Below are positions 6,604 through 22,124 of a stretch of DNA of 25,466 nucleotides, piece by piece; within the stretch, counting starts at the first letter, position 1, and every line of letters begins with the position of its first letter. Both the position numbers and the translations under genes were made by a program. The notes under the pieces are model-generated. The model was not told the origin of the DNA. It did not search any database and was given only the letters and a program-made list of their open reading frames with translations. The stretch spans positions 1-25,466 of IMG/VR virus record IMGVR_UViG_2671180892_000012; one strand, 5' to 3'. Origin of the DNA: a virus (Duplodnaviria; Heunggongvirae; Uroviricota; Caudoviricetes).

Positions 6604-6675
6604 CCGTTTAACTCCGTGGTTAATGGGTGCAACTATTTTCTGTTGGGCAGTGCATAAGACGCTATTTGACCTGAC

Positions 6676-6693
6676 TGGTCAGTGGATGAAACA
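6676..6693 (-). promoter_or_regulatory. Candidate Ogr-dependent late promoter element upstream of FI (imperfect TGT-N12-ACA dyad)
   Basis: tggTCAGTGGATGAAaca is one mismatch from the P2 late-promoter dyad TGT-N12-ACA, centred about 80 nt upstream of the FI ATG; weak, pattern-based only. Confidence 0.3.
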
Positions 6694-6770
6694 ACAGATA
6701 AAGCCAGCGCCTTAGATTTGATGATAGGTGATGTAACCGTCTGTATATTCGAGCAAAAACTGAAATTATG

Positions 6771-6800
6771 ATGACTTTACCTTCCTTGGTTAAGTATACT
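6771..6800 (+). promoter_or_regulatory. Possible sigma70 promoter for the cargo gene (-35 ATGACT, 18-nt spacer, -10 TATACT)
   Basis: Hexamers read from sequence about 25 nt upstream of the ATG at 6825; GAGG ribosome-binding site at 6817-6820. Confidence 0.3.
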
Positions 6801-6824
6801 GTTCTTTTTTGATTGTGAGGATAT

Positions 6825-7409
6825 ATGGCACAGAATATGCCTAAAGAGCAGAGGGTTACACTCATTACGCTAGCTACTTTAACTGCAGTAGTCGCAGTCT
6901 TTTGGTTTTTGTCTATGGTGTTCGAGCATGAAATAAAATGTTTGGGCCCCTTAGTAGTTTCACTCTCAAGTGCAATACCAGTTTTTTCCTTGTGGTGGCC
7001 ATTTAAACCTAAGTACATATCCAAACGAATACGAAATACATTATCCGTTGATTTAAATATCACAAACCATGTTCTGTTTGGTGATGGAGATTACAAGTTT
7101 GACCCTTATTTTTCCACTGCGTCAAACAGAAGCCTTCATGTTATAACAAGATATTCTAATTATCTTTTGGGAGGAGCCCCCGCCTTAGAAATATATAACT
7201 TCCATGAGATTGGTGATGCAGAAGCATTCCCAATAAACAAACTTGATATAAATAACACGCCTATTGAGCAAGTGGTTATTTTGAAAAACATTCATAATAA
7301 ATACGCCTTAATAAAAATAAACTCAATTAATCAACAGCACCCTCATATTTTTGAGATCGAGTACATTCTAAACAGCGCAGGTTCTGGGAATTTTACGGAG
7401 TGCAGATAA
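6825..7409 (+). CDS. Hypothetical membrane protein (194 aa) at the P2 Z/fun cargo position, opposite strand to the late genes
   Basis: ATG with GAGG RBS; two N-terminal hydrophobic helices (VTLITLATLTAVVAVFWFLSMVF; LGPLVVSLSSAIPVFSLWWPF); visibly AT-rich compared with flanking tail genes; between G and FI, where P2 carries Z/fun. Confidence 0.6.
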   Translation: MAQNMPKEQRVTLITLATLTAVVAVFWFLSMVFEHEIKCLGPLVVSLSSAIPVFSLWWPFKPKYISKRIRNTLSVDLNITNHVLFGDGDYKFDPYFSTASNRSLHVITRYSNYLLGGAPALEIYNFHEIGDAEAFPINKLDINNTPIEQVVILKNIHNKYALIKINSINQQHPHIFEIEYILNSAGSGNFTECR

Positions 7410-12714: not shown

Positions 12715-13500
12715 ATGGTCAGCTATAATGTGACTAATGTGTGGGAGCTAATCGTTTTGTATCTTTTGGTCTTTGCAGTATTAGCATTTTTTTGCTTTGG
12801 TAAAAGTAACCTTATGAGGCTTATTGCACATTATTTCAAATTTGGATATTCAGACAAAAAATTAAAAAGACTGGACCGCGAGTGGCGCGACATTCAACTA
12901 TTTAAAACACTTAACGGAATCAATGTATCAGGCATCGAAGATGTGAGAATGATACAGCAGGGGCTGATTGATGGAAAACTAAAAACATCGGATTTTTTCC
13001 TTACTCGCTTCTGGGGAGACATAACAGAACCGCTATGCATCACAAAAACAATGAGTGCAGTCCTGGCCGGAATTCTTTATATTATCTTCGCATGTTACAT
13101 ACACAATGAACAATCCGCTATAGTAAGGGATGCCATAGGTATACCATATAAAAATATGATGTACTATGTTTATAGTGACAAAGTTCTTTTATCCTTCAAA
13201 AATAAAACAGTTGAATTTAATAAAACTTATAGCCTTGCCGATTGCAAGAGTCTGCAAAACGTATTTATAAAAGACACACTTCCTGAGATCGCCTGCAATA
13301 AGCTCTTACAGCTAAACGAGGAGGACTCCGAATGGTTAAGTCAGGAGATTAAAGATAATAACAGCCACAGAAAAACATTATTAATACTATCCCTCGTCTA
13401 TTTCATTTCAGGTTTGCTTATATTCCTGTCATATACAAAATTCCTTTACGCCAATAAGAAGGTTTTAGAATACAAAGCATCAAATAAAAACCACTCATAA
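12715..13500 (+). CDS. Hypothetical polytopic membrane protein (261 aa) at the P2 orf30 cargo position
   Basis: ATG with AAGGAGAG RBS; three hydrophobic segments (LIVLYLLVFAVLAFFCF; AVLAGILYIIFACYI; LLILSLVYFISGLLIFLSY); AT-rich; opposite strand to flanking V and S; followed by a strong hairpin. Confidence 0.6.
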   Translation: MVSYNVTNVWELIVLYLLVFAVLAFFCFGKSNLMRLIAHYFKFGYSDKKLKRLDREWRDIQLFKTLNGINVSGIEDVRMIQQGLIDGKLKTSDFFLTRFWGDITEPLCITKTMSAVLAGILYIIFACYIHNEQSAIVRDAIGIPYKNMMYYVYSDKVLLSFKNKTVEFNKTYSLADCKSLQNVFIKDTLPEIACNKLLQLNEEDSEWLSQEIKDNNSHRKTLLILSLVYFISGLLIFLSYTKFLYANKKVLEYKASNKNHS

Positions 13501-15444: not shown

Positions 15445-15684
15445 TTAAGCCGGTACGCCGCCGGCGGTACGCCAGACGGTGACCAGTTTTTCCAGTGAAT
15501 GCTCACGCTGACCGTAACCGGCACCCGGCAGGGACGCCCAGATATTGCGACAGCGTGAAATGGCGCGCTCAATGCGTCCCGCCCGGATGTCATCCAGTGC
15601 ACCGCGTTCGCGGATCAACTGAATGGCGAGTCTGTCCTGTGACAACGGACTGAAATCCGGCAGGGCAAGCTGTTTGCGGTAAGG
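15445..15684 (-). pseudogene. K: 3' fragment of endolysin gene K (C-terminal ~80 codons only, no start codon)
   Basis: Open frame reads ...PYRKQLALPDFSPLSQDRLAIQLIRERGALDDIRAGRIERAISRCRNIWASLPGAGYGQREHSLEKLVTVWRTAGGVPA and is closed upstream by a stop at 15685-15687; the ORF-track M at 15645 is a TTG; the N-terminal catalytic part is absent. Confidence 0.6.
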
Positions 15685-16352
15685 TCATCAGACTGGAAAC
15701 CTCACCGGCAAAATATACCCGCCGTGGCGTGGAGGAGGATGTTTACTGGTGGGTGCCGTCCTTCAACGAGCCGACAGCCTTCACGCCCGGCTCCGTGTTT
15801 CACCTGCTGGAGCCGGATATCAATCAGGAGCTGTACGGCCTGCCGGAATATCTCAGCGCCCTTAATTCTGCCTGGCTGAATGAATCAGCCACACTGTTCC
15901 GCCGCAAGTATTACGAAAACGGCGCTCATGCCGGATACATCATGTACGTCACTGATGCCGTGCAGGATCGCAACGATATCGAAATGCTCCGCGAAAACAT
16001 GGTGAAGTCGAAAGGCCGCAACAACTTTAAAAACCTGTTTCTCTATGCACCACAGGGAAAAGCCGACGGCATTAAAATTATCCCGCTCAGTGAAGTGGCA
16101 ACGAAGGACGATTTTTTTAATATCAAAAAAGCCAGCGCCGCTGACCTGCTGGACGCGCACCGCATCCCCTTTCAGTTAATGGGCGGCAAGCCGGAGAACG
16201 TCGGGTCACTGGGCGATATTGAGAAAGTGGCAAAGGTCTTTGTCCGCAATGAGCTTATCCCGTTACAGGACAGGATTCGGGAAATAAACGGCTGGCTCGG
16301 TCAGGAGGTCATCCGCTTTAAAAACTACTCACTGGACACTGACAACGGCTGA
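15654..16352 (+). pseudogene. Q: 3' fragment of portal gene Q (about 230 C-terminal codons, no proper start)
   Basis: Frame is open from 15654; ORF-track start at 15729 is GTG; convergent with the late operon and ends about 170 nt before cos, as expected for the Q 3' end; identification as portal is from memory of P2 Q and synteny. Confidence 0.55.
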
Positions 16353-16522: not shown

Positions 16523-16541
16523 GTGCTTTCCCCGCCTCGCC
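16523..16541 (-). other. cos cohesive-end sequence (minus strand GGCGAGGCGGGGAAAGCAC)
   Basis: Plus strand gtgctttccccgcctcgcc is the reverse complement of the 19-nt P2 cohesive end as I remember it; located between Q and the old-position cargo, as in P2. Confidence 0.6.
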
Positions 16542-16647: not shown

Positions 16648-16666
16648 ATGCACCCTATAGGTGCAT
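16648..16666 (-). terminator. Hairpin (atgcacc / ggtgcat, 5-nt loop) just downstream of the cargo operon; possible terminator
   Basis: 7-bp inverted repeat 13 nt after the stop of the 333-aa gene; minus strand continues CATTTTG. Confidence 0.3.
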
Positions 16667-16678
16667 TCATATTAAACA

Positions 16679-17680
16679 TCACCGAGCCATCTTGACTGCA
16701 TAATGAACACAAAAATAATGTTCTCCCGCATATCTAAAATGATGTTCAATTTTTCTCAAACCTATATATGGAGTCTCCACTTCTTTAATCCCAACTATCT
16801 CATGAGATTCTACACCAATATCTACCGGAGTAATCTCTTTTAGATAATCAATGTATCTCTCACACCAAGCATCAAATTTTGCGCCAGTATAATAAGCAAT
16901 TAAAAACAAGCGTTTAACATTAATAGGATTATAGTTACCAATTAGCTTTGAATAATGCTTTAATATGTTAGCTTGATCTAGAGATTTTAAAATCAATGCT
17001 TCTATTATAGCAAATAGATTTCCTTTATCTTCAATAACAAGATCTAATTCACCCGCACTTTTACCAGATTGAGACTCTCCCTCTCTAGTTTGATCTTTTA
17101 CCTCATAATTCTTAGCTAATAACATATCCCGTATAAAATCATTAAAATCATCTTCACCATATCCTTTAGCAGAGCGACGCCCCAATCTTTGAAGCACCCA
17201 AGATAAATCACTATCAAACTTTATAAAATTCAAAGGACGCTGCACTCGATCATCCTTTGATATTAAGCTTATACTATTAAGATTTAACAAATTAATCCTT
17301 TGCCTGATTAATTCATCAATATATCCAGAGTAACTATTATTATCTAACACTACGATATGCTTATCAAAAGTAGTGGCTGCATTAGCAACTGCACAAACAA
17401 CTATATCCTTAATATCCTCAGAACTATTCGGCACTGGTGTACGCAATATCTTGCCTGAAGGAGCTTTAGATAACTCAGACTCCCACTTCTTAAAAAACAA
17501 AAAAGAATCCTTGTTGTTTCCGCAAGACTTTAAATAACCTAAGCGAATTTTTCCATCAGCATCAAGAATCAACTCATTTTCACCATTAACAATGGTTTCA
17601 ATAAAAAAACCGCTAAACACTTTAACATCAGAAATATTAGCAGCAACAAATTCAGGACACAAACAAACAGCACAAAGCAT
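16679..17680 (-). CDS. Hypothetical 333-aa protein, second gene of the ATPase operon; candidate effector, family not recognised
   Basis: ATG 1 nt after the ATPase stop (translationally coupled); AT-rich; no transmembrane segments; C-terminal half has a pattern (FIRDMLLAKNYEV ... GELDLVIEDKGNLFAIIEALILK) resembling Mrr-like PD-(D/E)xK nuclease cores, unverified. Confidence 0.65.
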   Translation of the reverse strand: MLCAVCLCPEFVAANISDVKVFSGFFIETIVNGENELILDADGKIRLGYLKSCGNNKDSFLFFKKWESELSKAPSGKILRTPVPNSSEDIKDIVVCAVANAATTFDKHIVVLDNNSYSGYIDELIRQRINLLNLNSISLISKDDRVQRPLNFIKFDSDLSWVLQRLGRRSAKGYGEDDFNDFIRDMLLAKNYEVKDQTREGESQSGKSAGELDLVIEDKGNLFAIIEALILKSLDQANILKHYSKLIGNYNPINVKRLFLIAYYTGAKFDAWCERYIDYLKEITPVDIGVESHEIVGIKEVETPYIGLRKIEHHFRYAGEHYFCVHYAVKMAR

Positions 17681-17681
17681 A

Positions 17682-19349
17682 TCAATGAACTCCCTTTGAG
17701 TTCATTATTTTTTGTATCTTTAATTCCTGTATTCTAATTGTATCCTGAATCTCAACATCCATAAACTCATTTGGCCATGTGATATCTCCATCAGAATTCA
17801 CAGCCACTCTATTTAGTAAGGTTGATGTTCCCTCTTCATCTCGCTCAAGATGATAGATTGCCACATGGTCCTCAGTAAGTTCGCTTGATTCATCAACAAT
17901 TCTTAATCTAATCCGTCTAACTAATGCATCACTATGTGTTTCAATAATAAAAATTTTCTTTTCTTGCATAGATATTTTAATTAATGCGTCAGTTAACCAT
18001 GCCTGCATTTTAGGATGCAAATGTATTTCTGGTTGTTCTATTATTGTAATCGAGCCCTTTGGTGACAAATAAGCTTGAACCAAGACAGGCAACACTTGTG
18101 ATATTCCAAACCCTACATCTGTCAATTCTAAATTAACAGCATCTTGGTTTATAACTATCTTATGAATTATGTCATTAACTCTAACTATATCAACCGCTAA
18201 GTTAAATTCAGCGAGAAGAAGGTTTATGTTTTCTGTTATTTTTGTATTTTTCTTCAGAATCTCCGCCAACTCAGAGCCATCAGCAGAATTTAACTGAGCA
18301 TGATTGACTGTTTTATCTAATAAATAATAACGCTGAGGAAATGCCCTCAACGGGCTGACATGATTAACATTTTCGCCATCAAACATTTTTGAAAGCATTA
18401 ATACTCCCAGAGAAACAACATGTGACAAAAAGTTAACAACAGGGTTGTAGGAATTTCCAAAAAAAACATAAAAACCACGTCCTTCATTGACAGGGAATAG
18501 CCCCAAAGAATAAGGATTCATGATTTCTAAGATATCAGACTTACATCCTCTAAATACTTCTTGAGGGATAACATCCGACAATACAACGACATTATTCTTT
18601 TTGGGTAACAGTTCAACTATTCTTTCATCATTCTTATTTAGAAGAACAAATCTCGAAACCTTTACCACACCTTTATTTTTATCATATCTGAAGTCATAAC
18701 TTATTTTAGATGCAGACAATTTATTTCCTGAAATAGAAACAACTTTAGTTAGGCAATCTTTGATTCTCTTCAATGGGCATTCATATATAAATCTGCGTAA
18801 GTTTTCTGAGGTGGCCCGGCTAAACATAATATTATTGCCAGCATCTCTAAAAAGCATAATCAACTGGCACAATTTATCAGCAATAATATTTAATTTAGCC
18901 TCCTCAAACTCATCAAAATTAACAATGGCATTCAAAGATTCATTTATCAAATTATTGGCCTTCGCGACCAACTCATCATTATTTTTTACTGTCTGTATAG
19001 TGAATCGCATAATCATAGCAAATGATTCTAAAGTTTCTCTTCTCAGAGTATCAATGCCATTTTTAACTACGCTATTATCAGAAAAATCAAAGCTAAAGTT
19101 AAGTGTTTTGGAGTCATCTTTATTTTTTATAATATTTAATGCTTCCCCCATTCCCACTTTAGGTCCATTCAGCCGTAGAGCAGAGTCAGACAATGACATT
19201 GAATCAACTGTCTGAGAAAACATCAACAAAGAGTTAATTAGTGCACTTTTTCCACAACTATTTGCACCTAACAATATTGTCAATGGCTTTAAATCTAACT
19301 TAAAGCTTTCGTATGCTTTATAATTTTGTCCTGTAAAAGTTCTCAGCAT
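17682..19349 (-). CDS. P-loop ATPase of the OLD/ABC (AAA_15/AAA_21-like) type, 555 aa, no Toprim domain
   Basis: Walker A GANSCGKS at codons 28-35 (nt 19245-19268, checked by reverse complement); Walker B/D-loop ITIIEQPEIHLHP and H-loop IIETHS near residues 433-473; about 400-aa insert between them; AAGGAG RBS 8 nt before the ATG; AT-rich. Confidence 0.8.
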   Translation of the reverse strand: MLRTFTGQNYKAYESFKLDLKPLTILLGANSCGKSALINSLLMFSQTVDSMSLSDSALRLNGPKVGMGEALNIIKNKDDSKTLNFSFDFSDNSVVKNGIDTLRRETLESFAMIMRFTIQTVKNNDELVAKANNLINESLNAIVNFDEFEEAKLNIIADKLCQLIMLFRDAGNNIMFSRATSENLRRFIYECPLKRIKDCLTKVVSISGNKLSASKISYDFRYDKNKGVVKVSRFVLLNKNDERIVELLPKKNNVVVLSDVIPQEVFRGCKSDILEIMNPYSLGLFPVNEGRGFYVFFGNSYNPVVNFLSHVVSLGVLMLSKMFDGENVNHVSPLRAFPQRYYLLDKTVNHAQLNSADGSELAEILKKNTKITENINLLLAEFNLAVDIVRVNDIIHKIVINQDAVNLELTDVGFGISQVLPVLVQAYLSPKGSITIIEQPEIHLHPKMQAWLTDALIKISMQEKKIFIIETHSDALVRRIRLRIVDESSELTEDHVAIYHLERDEEGTSTLLNRVAVNSDGDITWPNEFMDVEIQDTIRIQELKIQKIMNSKGVH

Positions 19350-19588
19350 ATAATCTCCTTTTTAATAATAGTATAAATGTTATGTCTCATAAGTTTTACC
19401 ATATATACACCACGTTATGGCAAATCTCATCAAAAATGAAAGCATCTCTTTTTATACATTTAAGCAGCAACCTGTTTCTCTGACCACCCATAGCCGTAGT
19501 ATGACGCATAGAAAAGAAAACATGAACAGATGTTACAAAAAATGTAATATGCTATACAAAACAATGCATTACAGCCTGAAGCGCTATC

Positions 19589-21859
19589 TTATACTACAAA
19601 TTCCGGCCACTCATCAGCGACCGGATACGTGAATTTTTTCCCGTCATAATTTACGGTTGCCCCACGCGCCAGCGACTCAAGCTCCCATCGCTGAGGTCTG
19701 ATACCGTTCTGAGCAAGATCAACGCGAATACGGGTAATTTGCAATCGTTCCGACCTGGTCAGCCTGGCCGATGGCGCTATTTCATGCGGTTTTAACGGGC
19801 TTCCGTTTCTTTGCTGACGATTTGGTCTTCTCAGGCCGTGTTTTAATGCCCCCCTGAGCCCCCTCACGACCTCCGGGTCATTCCATTCAATAACACCGTC
19901 ATCTACCAGATTAAGCACTGCTGCGGCGTGTTCAGAAGGCGTGGGAGCCGGTGACGAAGTATCACCACCGGTGAGCTTTCCACAGTTATTGACAGGACTC
20001 CGAGGCGCGGCGATGCCGCTTTTTAAAGTCAAAGGCTCAACGACCGGCACTTTCGGAACAATGCGCCAGTCCGTCGTTCTGGTGATATGAATATGACGCG
20101 CGCCGAGATGCGGCGCGTAAATGCCGACCACTCTCTCGACTTCTTCCTCGTACTCGTTAACGTCATCCGACGGGCTACGGGCGACCCTGACAGTCTGGCA
20201 ATCGCGCGGGACATTTGCCCCGCCCTGCGCGCTGATATACAACGCAAAATCACCACTGTCTGCAGCGGCGCGTGCAGCCTCGACGCGCTCGTCAAACTCA
20301 TCAGCAATGCTGACGCCGCGAGGCAATTTGCGTAGTTCACGGTAAGCCCCCATTGTCGGCAGACCAACCGTTTTAAATTGCGGGATGCGCCACGTTGACG
20401 CCCATGCGGTAACAGCCGCGGCAGTATCTTTCAGCGGTCTGCCGGTATCATTATCGAGCTGACCATCCAGTGCATAGCCGTCGATATTTTTTGAGATGTA
20501 TTTCGCGATATACCCCGCAGCACCGCCCCGGTTAAGATGTTTTGCCTGAAAACGGTTTCGCGCGGCTCCTCTTTCGTCTCCATCCTCTTTGAGCGCGTAG
20601 CGACGCATGATTTCAATAATCTGGTTACGCTGGCGTGGATTACAAAAAAGCATCATATGCCAGTGCGGCGTTCCGTCGTGGTGTGGCTCGACGACACGCA
20701 AACCGTAGACCTGTAAATCATTATCCTTGAATGCCGTGCGCATCAGGCTCCAGATACGGCAGAGATAACGCTGCGCATCCTTTGGATTAAATGCCTCATC
20801 GTTCCAGCCGTGATTAAGCTGCACGGTTTTACTTTCGCCTTTTCCGACCTGACGTGTCGGGTGATACTTTGACGGCGCGGTCAGCGTGATAAACATCCCC
20901 ACATCACCCTCTGCAGCGGCGTAACGCTCAATACCGGCAATGGTGTTCATCAGCTCCATCCGGCGAATTTCAGGATTAGAAATACTGCCCATCACCTTAC
21001 TGATAAGGTCGATGCGCTCGCCGGTTTCCCTGTTCTCAAGGTCACACGATTTAAGAAACTCCAGATTTGCCTGGCGGCGCGCACGCACATCACGAATGGC
21101 ATGTTTACTGGCATAAGGAGAACGGTCTTTATTGACCTCCCCGACAGCAATCAGTAACGCCTCATGCCAGCGCATACGCTGGCCTTTAAGCTGATGAGTC
21201 CACCACTCATCGTTAAACAGGCGGGCAATGGCAGAATATGCCTGCCTCGTGGTCATCTGTCCTTTACGGTATTTTTTCCAGTAGAGAGGGGAAATATTGA
21301 AAGCACGTGCAGCGCCAGCAACATGACCATAGAGGTGAGCCTGCGCCTCATCCGTAAACAGCGATTCTTTCTCGCCATGCGCATCCACCCAGGCATCGCA
21401 GAGTTCCTCATACATCATGAAAAGCTGTGATGAGATACGGGCGGCAAACTTTTTCAGCTCCTTGTCATTCATCCCCGGCAGACGCGCATACTGGTCGCGC
21501 TCTGCCAGAAACAGCAACGACGCGTCGGTGTTCATTTCATGGCGCTGATTCACGCGCTCAATGCGCGGCCATAAACGACGCTGAAAAGTGGATGTGAGGA
21601 AATAAAACCCGTGCACCGGGCTTTTATTGCGCCGGATGTAGTCATAGCGTGAAGTAAACAGCGAGCGCAAAAAGTAAGGCAGGCGGTTAATCGTGGATAA
21701 AACACCTTGCACCTGACGCATCTCGTCACGTGTAAGGGGTCTTTCGCGCCCGACGGCCTCGCGTGGCGCGTTCCATGCATAAGCACCGGTAAACGTCTTA
21801 CCGGTGCCTGCGGCAAATGCTGACGGAGGGACAAAATGCCCGGAGGCTTTAACGGCCAT
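19589..21859 (-). CDS. A: Replication initiation protein A (rolling-circle nicking endonuclease), about 756 aa
   Basis: HUH-type motif EPHHDGTPHWHMMLF and active-site tyrosine region GYIAKYISKNIDGY; ORF-track start at 21901 is TTG, the ATG at 21859 gives MAVKASG...; position after B and the small ORFs as in P2. Confidence 0.85.
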   Translation of the reverse strand: MAVKASGHFVPPSAFAAGTGKTFTGAYAWNAPREAVGRERPLTRDEMRQVQGVLSTINRLPYFLRSLFTSRYDYIRRNKSPVHGFYFLTSTFQRRLWPRIERVNQRHEMNTDASLLFLAERDQYARLPGMNDKELKKFAARISSQLFMMYEELCDAWVDAHGEKESLFTDEAQAHLYGHVAGAARAFNISPLYWKKYRKGQMTTRQAYSAIARLFNDEWWTHQLKGQRMRWHEALLIAVGEVNKDRSPYASKHAIRDVRARRQANLEFLKSCDLENRETGERIDLISKVMGSISNPEIRRMELMNTIAGIERYAAAEGDVGMFITLTAPSKYHPTRQVGKGESKTVQLNHGWNDEAFNPKDAQRYLCRIWSLMRTAFKDNDLQVYGLRVVEPHHDGTPHWHMMLFCNPRQRNQIIEIMRRYALKEDGDERGAARNRFQAKHLNRGGAAGYIAKYISKNIDGYALDGQLDNDTGRPLKDTAAAVTAWASTWRIPQFKTVGLPTMGAYRELRKLPRGVSIADEFDERVEAARAAADSGDFALYISAQGGANVPRDCQTVRVARSPSDDVNEYEEEVERVVGIYAPHLGARHIHITRTTDWRIVPKVPVVEPLTLKSGIAAPRSPVNNCGKLTGGDTSSPAPTPSEHAAAVLNLVDDGVIEWNDPEVVRGLRGALKHGLRRPNRQQRNGSPLKPHEIAPSARLTRSERLQITRIRVDLAQNGIRPQRWELESLARGATVNYDGKKFTYPVADEWPEFVV

Positions 21860-22124
21860 GTGAGCCAAAAGCCTCTGAACAACGCCTGCTGAGTTGCTCA
21901 ACCTGCGCGTTTAAATCAGCAAAAGACTTTGCGCTTCCGGTCAGAATATCGTGATGCATCATGCCGGAAACGAGCTGGCTTAATTTCGGGTAATAACCAA
22001 CCACCGCCAGCCATTCCTGACCGGCGTTTTTACCGCTTTCAGCTCTCTTTTTCTCGTGGAGAATAAACTGAAAGCTGTCACTGGTAACGACATAACGTTC
22101 GCCAATTTCAATACGAATACTCAT
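21849..22124 (-). CDS. Hypothetical early-region protein, 91 aa (occupies the P2 orf83 position)
   Basis: ATG start; tightly packed between the zinc-finger ORF and A. Confidence 0.55.
   Translation of the reverse strand: MSIRIEIGERYVVTSDSFQFILHEKKRAESGKNAGQEWLAVVGYYPKLSQLVSGMMHHDILTGSAKSFADLNAQVEQLSRRCSEAFGSHGR

Follow-up and report, generated by a model that had tools for sequence, protein, structure and literature searches.

A two-gene ABC-ATPase cassette in the cos-proximal hotspot of a P2-like prophage, and its partner protein with a PIN-like domain and a putative effector module of the PD-(D/E)xK fold

The cassette and its place in the prophage

The 25,466-nucleotide stretch of DNA analysed here (IMG/VR record IMGVR_UViG_2671180892_000012, positions 1 to 25,466; "the window") is a P2-like Escherichia coli prophage that matches E. 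coli N61 with 100% identity and spans the region from pflA/int to the tail genes. On its minus strand lies a cassette of two adjoining genes, with a guanine-plus-cytosine (GC) content of 32–38% against about 55% for the phage. One gene encodes an ABC-type ATPase, the other a partner protein that is the subject of this report (Table 1). The partner gene runs from an ATG at 17680 to a stop codon at 16679–16681, and its translation begins with MLCAVCLC and contains FNDFIRDMLLAKNYEVKDQTREGESQSGKSAGELDLVIEDKGNLFAIIEALILKS as residues 179–233. The peptides quoted for this interval in a preliminary description of the DNA are real and belong to this minus-strand open reading frame (ORF); the plus-strand frame has many stops and no open reading. 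A single base separates the start codon from the ATPase stop codon (TGAtATG), and 49 homologues begin at the partner's Met.

Table 1. Coordinates of the cassette and associated features in the window
Feature	Position	Strand	Remarks
P2 cos cohesive-end sequence, GGCGAGGCGGGGAAAGCAC	16523..16541	-	Exact single match in the window
Terminator-like stem-loop with T-rich tail	16648..16666	-	13 nt past the partner stop; closes the two-gene unit
Partner (putative effector) gene	16679..17680	-	333 aa + stop; ORF333 of P2-EC5; WP_061348699.1
C-terminal PD-(D/E)xK (restriction-endonuclease) fold domain, putative nuclease effector module	16682..17245	-	aa 146-333
Conserved core of the C-terminal domain	16931..17155	-	aa 176-250; from column counts over 196 sequences and secondary structure
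N-terminal PIN-fold domain	17246..17680	-	aa 1-145
ABC-type ATPase gene	17682..19349	-	555 aa; NsnB/HEC-03 clade
AT-rich intergenic region, gpA to ATPase	19350..19588	-	Presumed promoter region of the two-gene operon

On one side the cassette is bounded by the replication gene gpA (19589–21901), and on the other by a truncated portal gene and the 19-mer at 16523–16541, which is the P2 cos sequence. A promoter scan upstream of the ATPase gave no signal above background and established no specific promoter. The cassette occupies the cos-proximal gpA–gpQ (tin/old) hotspot of the prophage. This locus, the home of tin and old in P2, has been shown to be an anti-phage system hotspot (Rousset et al. 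2022, PMC9122126), and Table S5 of that work lists the same ATPase, WP_024249463, together with WP_024249462 under the label "AAA_15/AAA_21 + hypothetical". The pair had already been deposited in 2006 as ORF555 and ORF333 of P2-EC5, both "hypothetical proteins" (AM157364.1), and a literature search on the accessions and on ORF555/ORF333 found no functional study. It is rare, being carried by six of 5426 complete E. coli genomes.

The two genes travel together. Twelve loci with a full-length partner were retrieved from E. coli, E. ruysiae, Leclercia, Dryocola, Pantoea, Enterobacter and three Pseudomonas, and in all twelve an ATPase homologue (43–53% identity) ends at the partner start codon. 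The surroundings are otherwise unrelated, and include P2-like prophages, an integrase/AlpA island, a resolvase, an IS1 element and housekeeping genes. The upstream neighbours at five homologous loci are a resolvase, LysR, QueA, a phage portal protein and one ORF with no Pfam match; at the Pseudomonas and Enterobacter loci they are unannotated ORFs, an insertion sequence (IS) element or an IS1 InsA gene. The gene for NsnA, the ParB-DUF262 + ParBDB protein of Menshen systems, was found neither in the window nor at any of the twelve loci. Since the pairing persists in such different settings and NsnA is missing, the conserved unit consists of two genes.

At most homologous loci the ATPase gene runs up to or into the start of the partner gene. 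In the window, a 9–10 bp hairpin at 17683–17707 on the minus strand covers the ATPase stop codon and the partner Shine-Dalgarno sequence. It was considered as a translational coupling device, by which translation of the partner would need ribosomes finishing the ATPase, and was rejected, as it is not conserved in eight homologous junctions.

Two domains of the partner protein

In the full-length AlphaFold model of the partner, made with 49 homologues (predicted local distance difference test score, pLDDT, 86), the protein consists of two domains. The first has the three-layer alpha/beta/alpha arrangement with five parallel strands that characterizes the PIN fold, in the order beta1-alpha-alpha-beta2-alpha-alpha-beta3-alpha-beta4-alpha-beta5. 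The D-E-D-D catalytic quartet of PIN nucleases is not kept in 73 N-domain sequences, its positions being mapped by secondary-structure position and not by superposition. Where PIN domains carry the first catalytic Asp, at the end of beta1, the family has C6-x-C8-P9 (65, 63 and 70 of the 73 sequences, respectively). D40 is the sole invariant acidic residue of the domain; of the 73 sequences, 56 have an acidic residue (D/E) at position 92, and at position 113 Asp occurs in 47 and Asn in 20. Judged from these alignments, the domain reads as an inactive PIN-like docking or recognition domain. The Cys-rich start, to which the preliminary description had drawn attention, is conserved in its C6-x-C8-P9 part; the rest of the Cys pattern of MLCAVCLC is not.

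This N-terminal motif extends to a conserved H-C-x-C-P at residues 5–9, and a C-x-H is conserved in the last strand (residues 324–326), where in the full-length family the majority have C324 and nearly all have H326. Together the two elements might make an inter-domain metal site, in a model whose inter-domain geometry is uncertain.

The second domain was harder to place, since the protein falls outside every curated family. Pfam, NCBIfam and PHROGs, searched with the partner, returned nothing of note (purC-type matches with E of about 0.02–0.05 were dismissed as noise), and profiles of the full-length family and the C-terminal domain found no true matches among PDB sequences. There is a weak PADLOC match to the CARF_PDDEXK model, over residues 174–250 (E 0.0066). 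Structure prediction, the check that the preliminary description had proposed for its suggestion of an Mrr-like PD-(D/E)xK nuclease core, did return a restriction-endonuclease-like fold: residues 146–333 alone, modelled with 52 diverged module sequences, reached a pLDDT of 92.7 and a predicted template modelling score (pTM) of 0.88. The modelled topology (helix 176–189, strand 193–196, a loop, strands 213–218 and 221–231, helix 236–249, strand 257–264) is the classic alpha-beta-beta-beta-alpha-beta core by which the PD-(D/E)xK superfamily is recognized. Structural matches, with their scores, include CdiA-CT EC869 (7.2), McrC (7.0), SwaI and CinB (both 6.6) and HamA (6.0), followed at lower scores by EcoRI, NucC, Can2, Card1, Shedu and Cap4; the closest structural neighbours are BamHI and BglII. 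Below threshold, module members match HSDR_N_2 three times and PDDEXK_4 twice (once with the window protein), and Mrr_cat (E=0.0037), Hjc (0.008) and NA-iREase3 once each; random families were matched no more than once apiece. The confident model and the recurrent matches to PD-(D/E)xK families therefore support the fold claim, and not the "Mrr-like" label.

The same domain occurs as a module in many other proteins. With the family profile, 1108 representative proteins are recovered at E<=1e-3, the majority through the C-terminal module only; about 35 fall below 1e-30, and 72 of 199 retrieved sequences have the family's N-terminal domain. Within the partner, segment 176–285, from which the preliminary description had quoted, is the best conserved part (mean pairwise identity 61%, versus 41% for the N-domain). 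Column counts were made over 196 aligned modules, gathered by exhaustive profile search. The core opens with helix alpha1, which carries E176, N180, D181 and R184, and continues with beta1, which ends in D196-Q-T-R199-x-G-x-S203; after a flexible loop, beta2 starts with G210-E211-x-D213, beta3 contains E227, and the helix that follows has H242-x-x-K245...Y250. Invariant or near-invariant positions are E176, N180, L187, Y192, D196, Q197, R199, G201, S203, G210, E211, D213, E227, L231, H242, K245, Y250, Y263 and F269; of these, E176, D196, Q197, R199, G201, S203, G210, E211, D213, E227, H242, K245 and Y250 are retained in at least 85% of the 196 modules. The most conserved element is the beta1-beta2 loop, D196-Q-T-R-x-G-x-S ... 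G-E211-x-D213. Confidence dips here, to a mean pLDDT of about 38 over residues 201–210 in the full-length model and to 63–70 in the C-domain model, a sign that the loop may be mobile, with an active-site or regulatory role. The stretch G-E-S-Q-S-G-K-S (residues 201–208), in the same loop, mimics a Walker A motif and was rejected as such: there is no P-loop, and K207 is found in only 111 of 196 modules.

Could the domain nevertheless be a degenerate member of the Mrr family, with its catalytic residues in ELDLVIEDK and a final E...K, as first described? One remote member does match Mrr_cat and one Hjc, as given above, and the layout of a helix, a "GY.V" strand, GxD and an E-bearing strand is like that of Mrr_cat. 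D213, just ahead of strand 214–218, is present in 195 of 196 sequences and E227, in the middle of the third core strand, in all 196; these are the expected "D" and "(D/E)" positions of PD-(D/E)xK. Together with E211, which is also near-invariant, they uphold part of the catalytic pattern originally proposed. The remainder of that pattern does not survive: E217, D218 and K219 are variable, as is K232, with which the final E...K falls as a catalytic motif, and the Mrr_cat hidden Markov model (PF04471) does not score above its gathering threshold. Membership of the Mrr family in particular is therefore improbable.

The ATPase and known defence systems

The ATPase, of the ABC type, matches AAA_15 (7.6e-25) and AAA_21 (2.2e-17) in Pfam and NsnB (2.3e-51), HEC-03B (5.2e-43), PDC-M55A (4.7e-41) and AriA (3.3e-28) in PADLOC, with weaker matches to GajA and PtuA; among solved structures, an OLD nuclease and retron PtuA come nearest to it. 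In eight homologues the Walker A motif (G28-ANSCGKS35), the Walker B motif (IIE438-Q439-PE) and the H-loop residue H472 are invariant, and so are two deviations from the usual ABC motifs, R335 (in SPLR) for the Q-loop Gln and G413-F-G415 for SGG. For NsnB, Arg in place of the Q-loop Gln, GxG in place of SGG and Glu-Asn in place of Asp-Glu are described (Li et al., PMC12065111). The window ATPase has the first two of these, and its Walker B Glu-Gln is closely analogous to the third. Its C-terminal tail matches DUF3696 below threshold (E=0.01; cut-off 22 bits). An insert at residues 91–325 is hypervariable, with pairwise identities of 23–29% versus 65–77% in the core, and is, on this pattern of variation, a candidate phage-sensing surface under diversifying selection.

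The closest parallel is with Menshen. NsnC, the effector of that system, has an N-terminal inactive PIN domain ("inPIN") and a variable C-terminal nuclease; according to a prediction, this inPIN domain sits clamped between two DUF3696 tails of NsnB tetramers (Li et al. NAR 2025, PMC12065111). The window pair resembles this system in its ATPase, with NsnB-type motifs and the sub-threshold DUF3696-like tail, in the NsnC layout of the partner at the level of fold (a PIN fold without D-E-D-D and a C-terminal nuclease-type effector), and in its gene order, ATPase before effector, with genes that abut or overlap. It differs in having no NsnA, in the greater size of its ATPase with the long variable insert, and in the partner's PD-(D/E)xK effector, which is outside the 15 published C-terminal families of NsnC, among them BECR, Toprim, PLD, DUF4160, PB-UF1 and DUF2103-like (PMC12065111).

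HEC-03 (Hma-embedded candidate 03) is likewise a two-gene system of an ABC ATPase and a PIN protein, with validated defence that needs the two genes together (Payne et al., bioRxiv 10.1101/2024.01.29.577857). There, the VapC-like PIN protein is the presumed effector, whereas the PIN-like domain of the window protein is degenerate and fused to a restriction-endonuclease (REase) fold domain. PARIS (AriA/AriB), Septu (PtuA/PtuB), Gabija (GajA) and OLD also combine an AAA_15/AAA_21 ATPase with a nuclease effector and are often found on P2/P4 hotspots, but their effectors are Toprim (AriB, GajA, OLD) or HNH (PtuB) proteins, the docking mode is another one, and there is no PIN-like adaptor. With the PD-(D/E)xK nucleases (BamHI, BglII, BstYI and OkrAI, as well as McrC, CdiA-CT EC869, HamA, NucC, Cap4 and Can2) the module shares the core fold and the acidic residues at the start of beta2 and in beta3. 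It differs from them in its identity of at most 14%, its long conserved DQTRxGxS...G-E-x-D loop and the hydrophobic residue two past E227, and the window protein, unlike the restriction enzymes, is not a stand-alone sequence-specific enzyme. Finally, with the Lamassu LmuA subfamily (PADLOC PDLC03853) the link is an LmuA-like protein that carries the module at its C-terminus, with 37% identity over 123 residues to the window protein. The N-terminal part and the partner ATPase, the SMC-like LmuB, are different, and only three of 52 module sequences reach the LmuA model. We consider it very probable that the partner is a dead PIN plus REase-fold protein that accompanies an ATPase of the NsnB/HEC-03 type, and that the pair belongs to this class of system as a two-gene variant.

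A putative effector, its alternatives and its relatives

What does the pair do? The explanation we favour, and consider rather more probable than its rivals combined, is that the partner is the effector subunit of a two-gene ABC-ATPase anti-phage module, carried as cargo in the P2-like hotspot. By analogy with NsnC, the DUF3696-like tails of an oligomeric ATPase would hold the PIN-like domain, which possibly also binds nucleic acid, and the NsnB/HEC-03-like ATPase would keep the effector nuclease inactive. The hypervariable insert of the ATPase would sense a phage cue, with no NsnA-type DNA sensor involved, and an ATP-dependent conformational change or release would then turn on the nuclease, which would cut phage and/or host nucleic acid, DNA being the likelier substrate for this fold.

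Is the C-terminal domain an active nuclease? The acidic cluster of E176, D196, E211, D213 and E227 most likely makes up a metal-dependent nuclease site with a non-canonical basic residue. Judging from strand register in the model, D213 would face E227 across the beta2-beta3 hairpin. The site is non-canonical, since E217, D218, K219 and K232 are variable and a hydrophobic residue stands two past E227; the basic catalytic residue may be R199, R184, K245 or K/R230. We regard catalytic competence of the domain as likely.

Several observations weigh against this explanation. There is no (D/E)-x-K on the third core strand, position 229 being Leu, Met or Phe in the 196-sequence alignment, and position 230, which is Lys or Arg in 119 of the 196, is occupied by Ile in both the window protein and the LmuA-like P0053. 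As the canonical Lys is missing, the domain could bind DNA without catalysis. In the full-length model, the geometry between the domains is uncertain (pTM 0.55). The NsnB match of the ATPase is confined mainly to its C-terminal half, and the partner matches neither the PADLOC NsnC models nor any PADLOC HEC-03 model. Lastly, we found no record of testing of the pair listed by Rousset et al., which is absent among the systems described as tested.

The main alternative starts from the missing Lys: the REase-fold domain would be dead (an "iREase") and would act as a DNA binder or sensor, while toxicity or defence would come from the ATPase, from residual PIN activity or from a host factor. Beyond the lack of a Lys in (D/E)xK and the loss of K/R230 in the window clade, this view can draw on the weak match of one relative to NA-iREase3, a family of inactive REases, and on the precedent of Menshen, where inactive REase domains serve as sensors in NsnA. 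Set against it, the five acidic positions, together with Q197, R199, H242 and K245, are near-invariant over 196 diverged sequences, which is hard to reconcile with a mere binder, and within the NsnC architecture the module takes the place of the C-terminal effector. BamHI and BglII, whose folds are closest, lack the third-position Lys as the module does and are active all the same. As to residual PIN activity, the PIN-like domain lacks the first catalytic Asp, and D40 is its only invariant acidic residue. A dead REase domain is thus an unlikely reading, though ahead of both the Mrr-specific one and the plain toxin-antitoxin one that follows.

Could the pair instead be a toxin-antitoxin-like addiction module, or serve some other accessory function for the phage, with the ATPase neutralizing a constitutively toxic nuclease? 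The annotation of AAA_21 reads "putative AbiEii toxin, type IV TA", the two genes are in tight translational coupling, and the pair is carried on mobile elements. On the other hand, the Enterobacter roggenkampii loci (L004–L006; ATPase at L004:6767–7999) have lost ATPase residues 1–152, including Walker A, beside an IS1 InsA gene, and the partner ORF is intact on about 25 contigs. This suggests that the partner alone is not lethal without a working ATPase, although the C-terminal part of the ATPase that is retained might still bind it. In HEC-03, moreover, and in PARIS, where deletion of neither gene is toxic, defence needs both genes. Addiction of this kind is accordingly the least probable of the readings considered.

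The distribution of the module also speaks for the effector explanation. Among 195 proteins, the module is C-terminal in 190. Its fusion partners include LRR-Roc-COR (ROCO) GTPases, nSTAND3 and NACHT nucleoside triphosphatases (NTPases), and AbiTii, pentapeptide, zinc-ribbon and AlbA_2 domains. It ends an LmuA-like protein whose gene comes after LmuC and LmuB, on a contig that bears a relaxase, and immediately downstream of TmtA, a Tiamat gene, there is a copy fused to AlbA_2. Immune effector domains that are shuffled among proteins typically show such a pattern. There is no Pfam model for the module, and source annotations read "hypothetical" or name other domains only. A wider proposal, which we advance tentatively, is that the module represents a previously unnamed, widespread REase-fold immune effector family with a non-canonical constellation (E176, D196, E211, D213 and E227 plus the DQTRxGxS loop, with no beta3 Lys), mounted on at least four NTPase chassis (NsnB-like ABC, Lamassu, ROCO and STAND/NACHT), and found here in a minimal, sensor-less Menshen-type system whose ATPase insert would detect phage directly and so replace NsnA. 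The Lamassu and Tiamat arrangements (L014:2660–8560 and L015:261–4274) are unusual in themselves, the Lamassu operon starting with a second, CARF_PDDEXK/Csx1-like gene.

Elsewhere in the window, the prophage is defective. The lysozyme and portal genes are marked partial by RefSeq and abut each other (about 15445–16352), so that the capsid/terminase block (most of Q, then P, O, N, M, L, X and Y) is gone; cos and the presumed defence cassette are kept. Two other stretches are low in GC. Between the baseplate gene V and the tail-completion gene S, on the strand opposite to its neighbours, lies a 261-residue ORF (12715–13500, plus strand; GC 35–42%) with several hydrophobic, membrane-like stretches, annotated as hypothetical and without a Pfam match; this is probably another cargo or moron slot, at the position of P2 orf30. 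The second (6662–7409; GC 36–44%), between the tail sheath and tail-fibre assembly genes, is at the P2 Z/fun position and holds ORFs of 194 residues (6825–7409, plus strand) and 133 residues (6662–7063, minus strand), neither with a Pfam match. It may be a second accessory or defence cargo.

Part of this was known: the sequence has been in databases since 2006, the cassette had been catalogued, and the system class is that of Menshen and HEC-03. What is new is a PD-(D/E)xK effector outside the 15 NsnC families, the absence of NsnA, and the recognition of a large, as yet unnamed family of effector domains that ROCO, STAND and Lamassu proteins have in common with the partner. One "AAA_15/AAA_21 + hypothetical" cassette of the P2 hotspot would thereby be explained, and the residues singled out would be D196, E211, D213 and E227 instead of the E217-D218-K219 "EDK" motif. 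If the effector explanation holds, a DNA-nuclease-type effector would join the Menshen/HEC-03 ABC-ATPase defences, whose known effectors are mostly RNases, and the NsnB–NsnC core would be able to work without the NsnA DNA sensor. It would also provide a first annotation for a module that is present in more than 1000 protein clusters at 50% identity.
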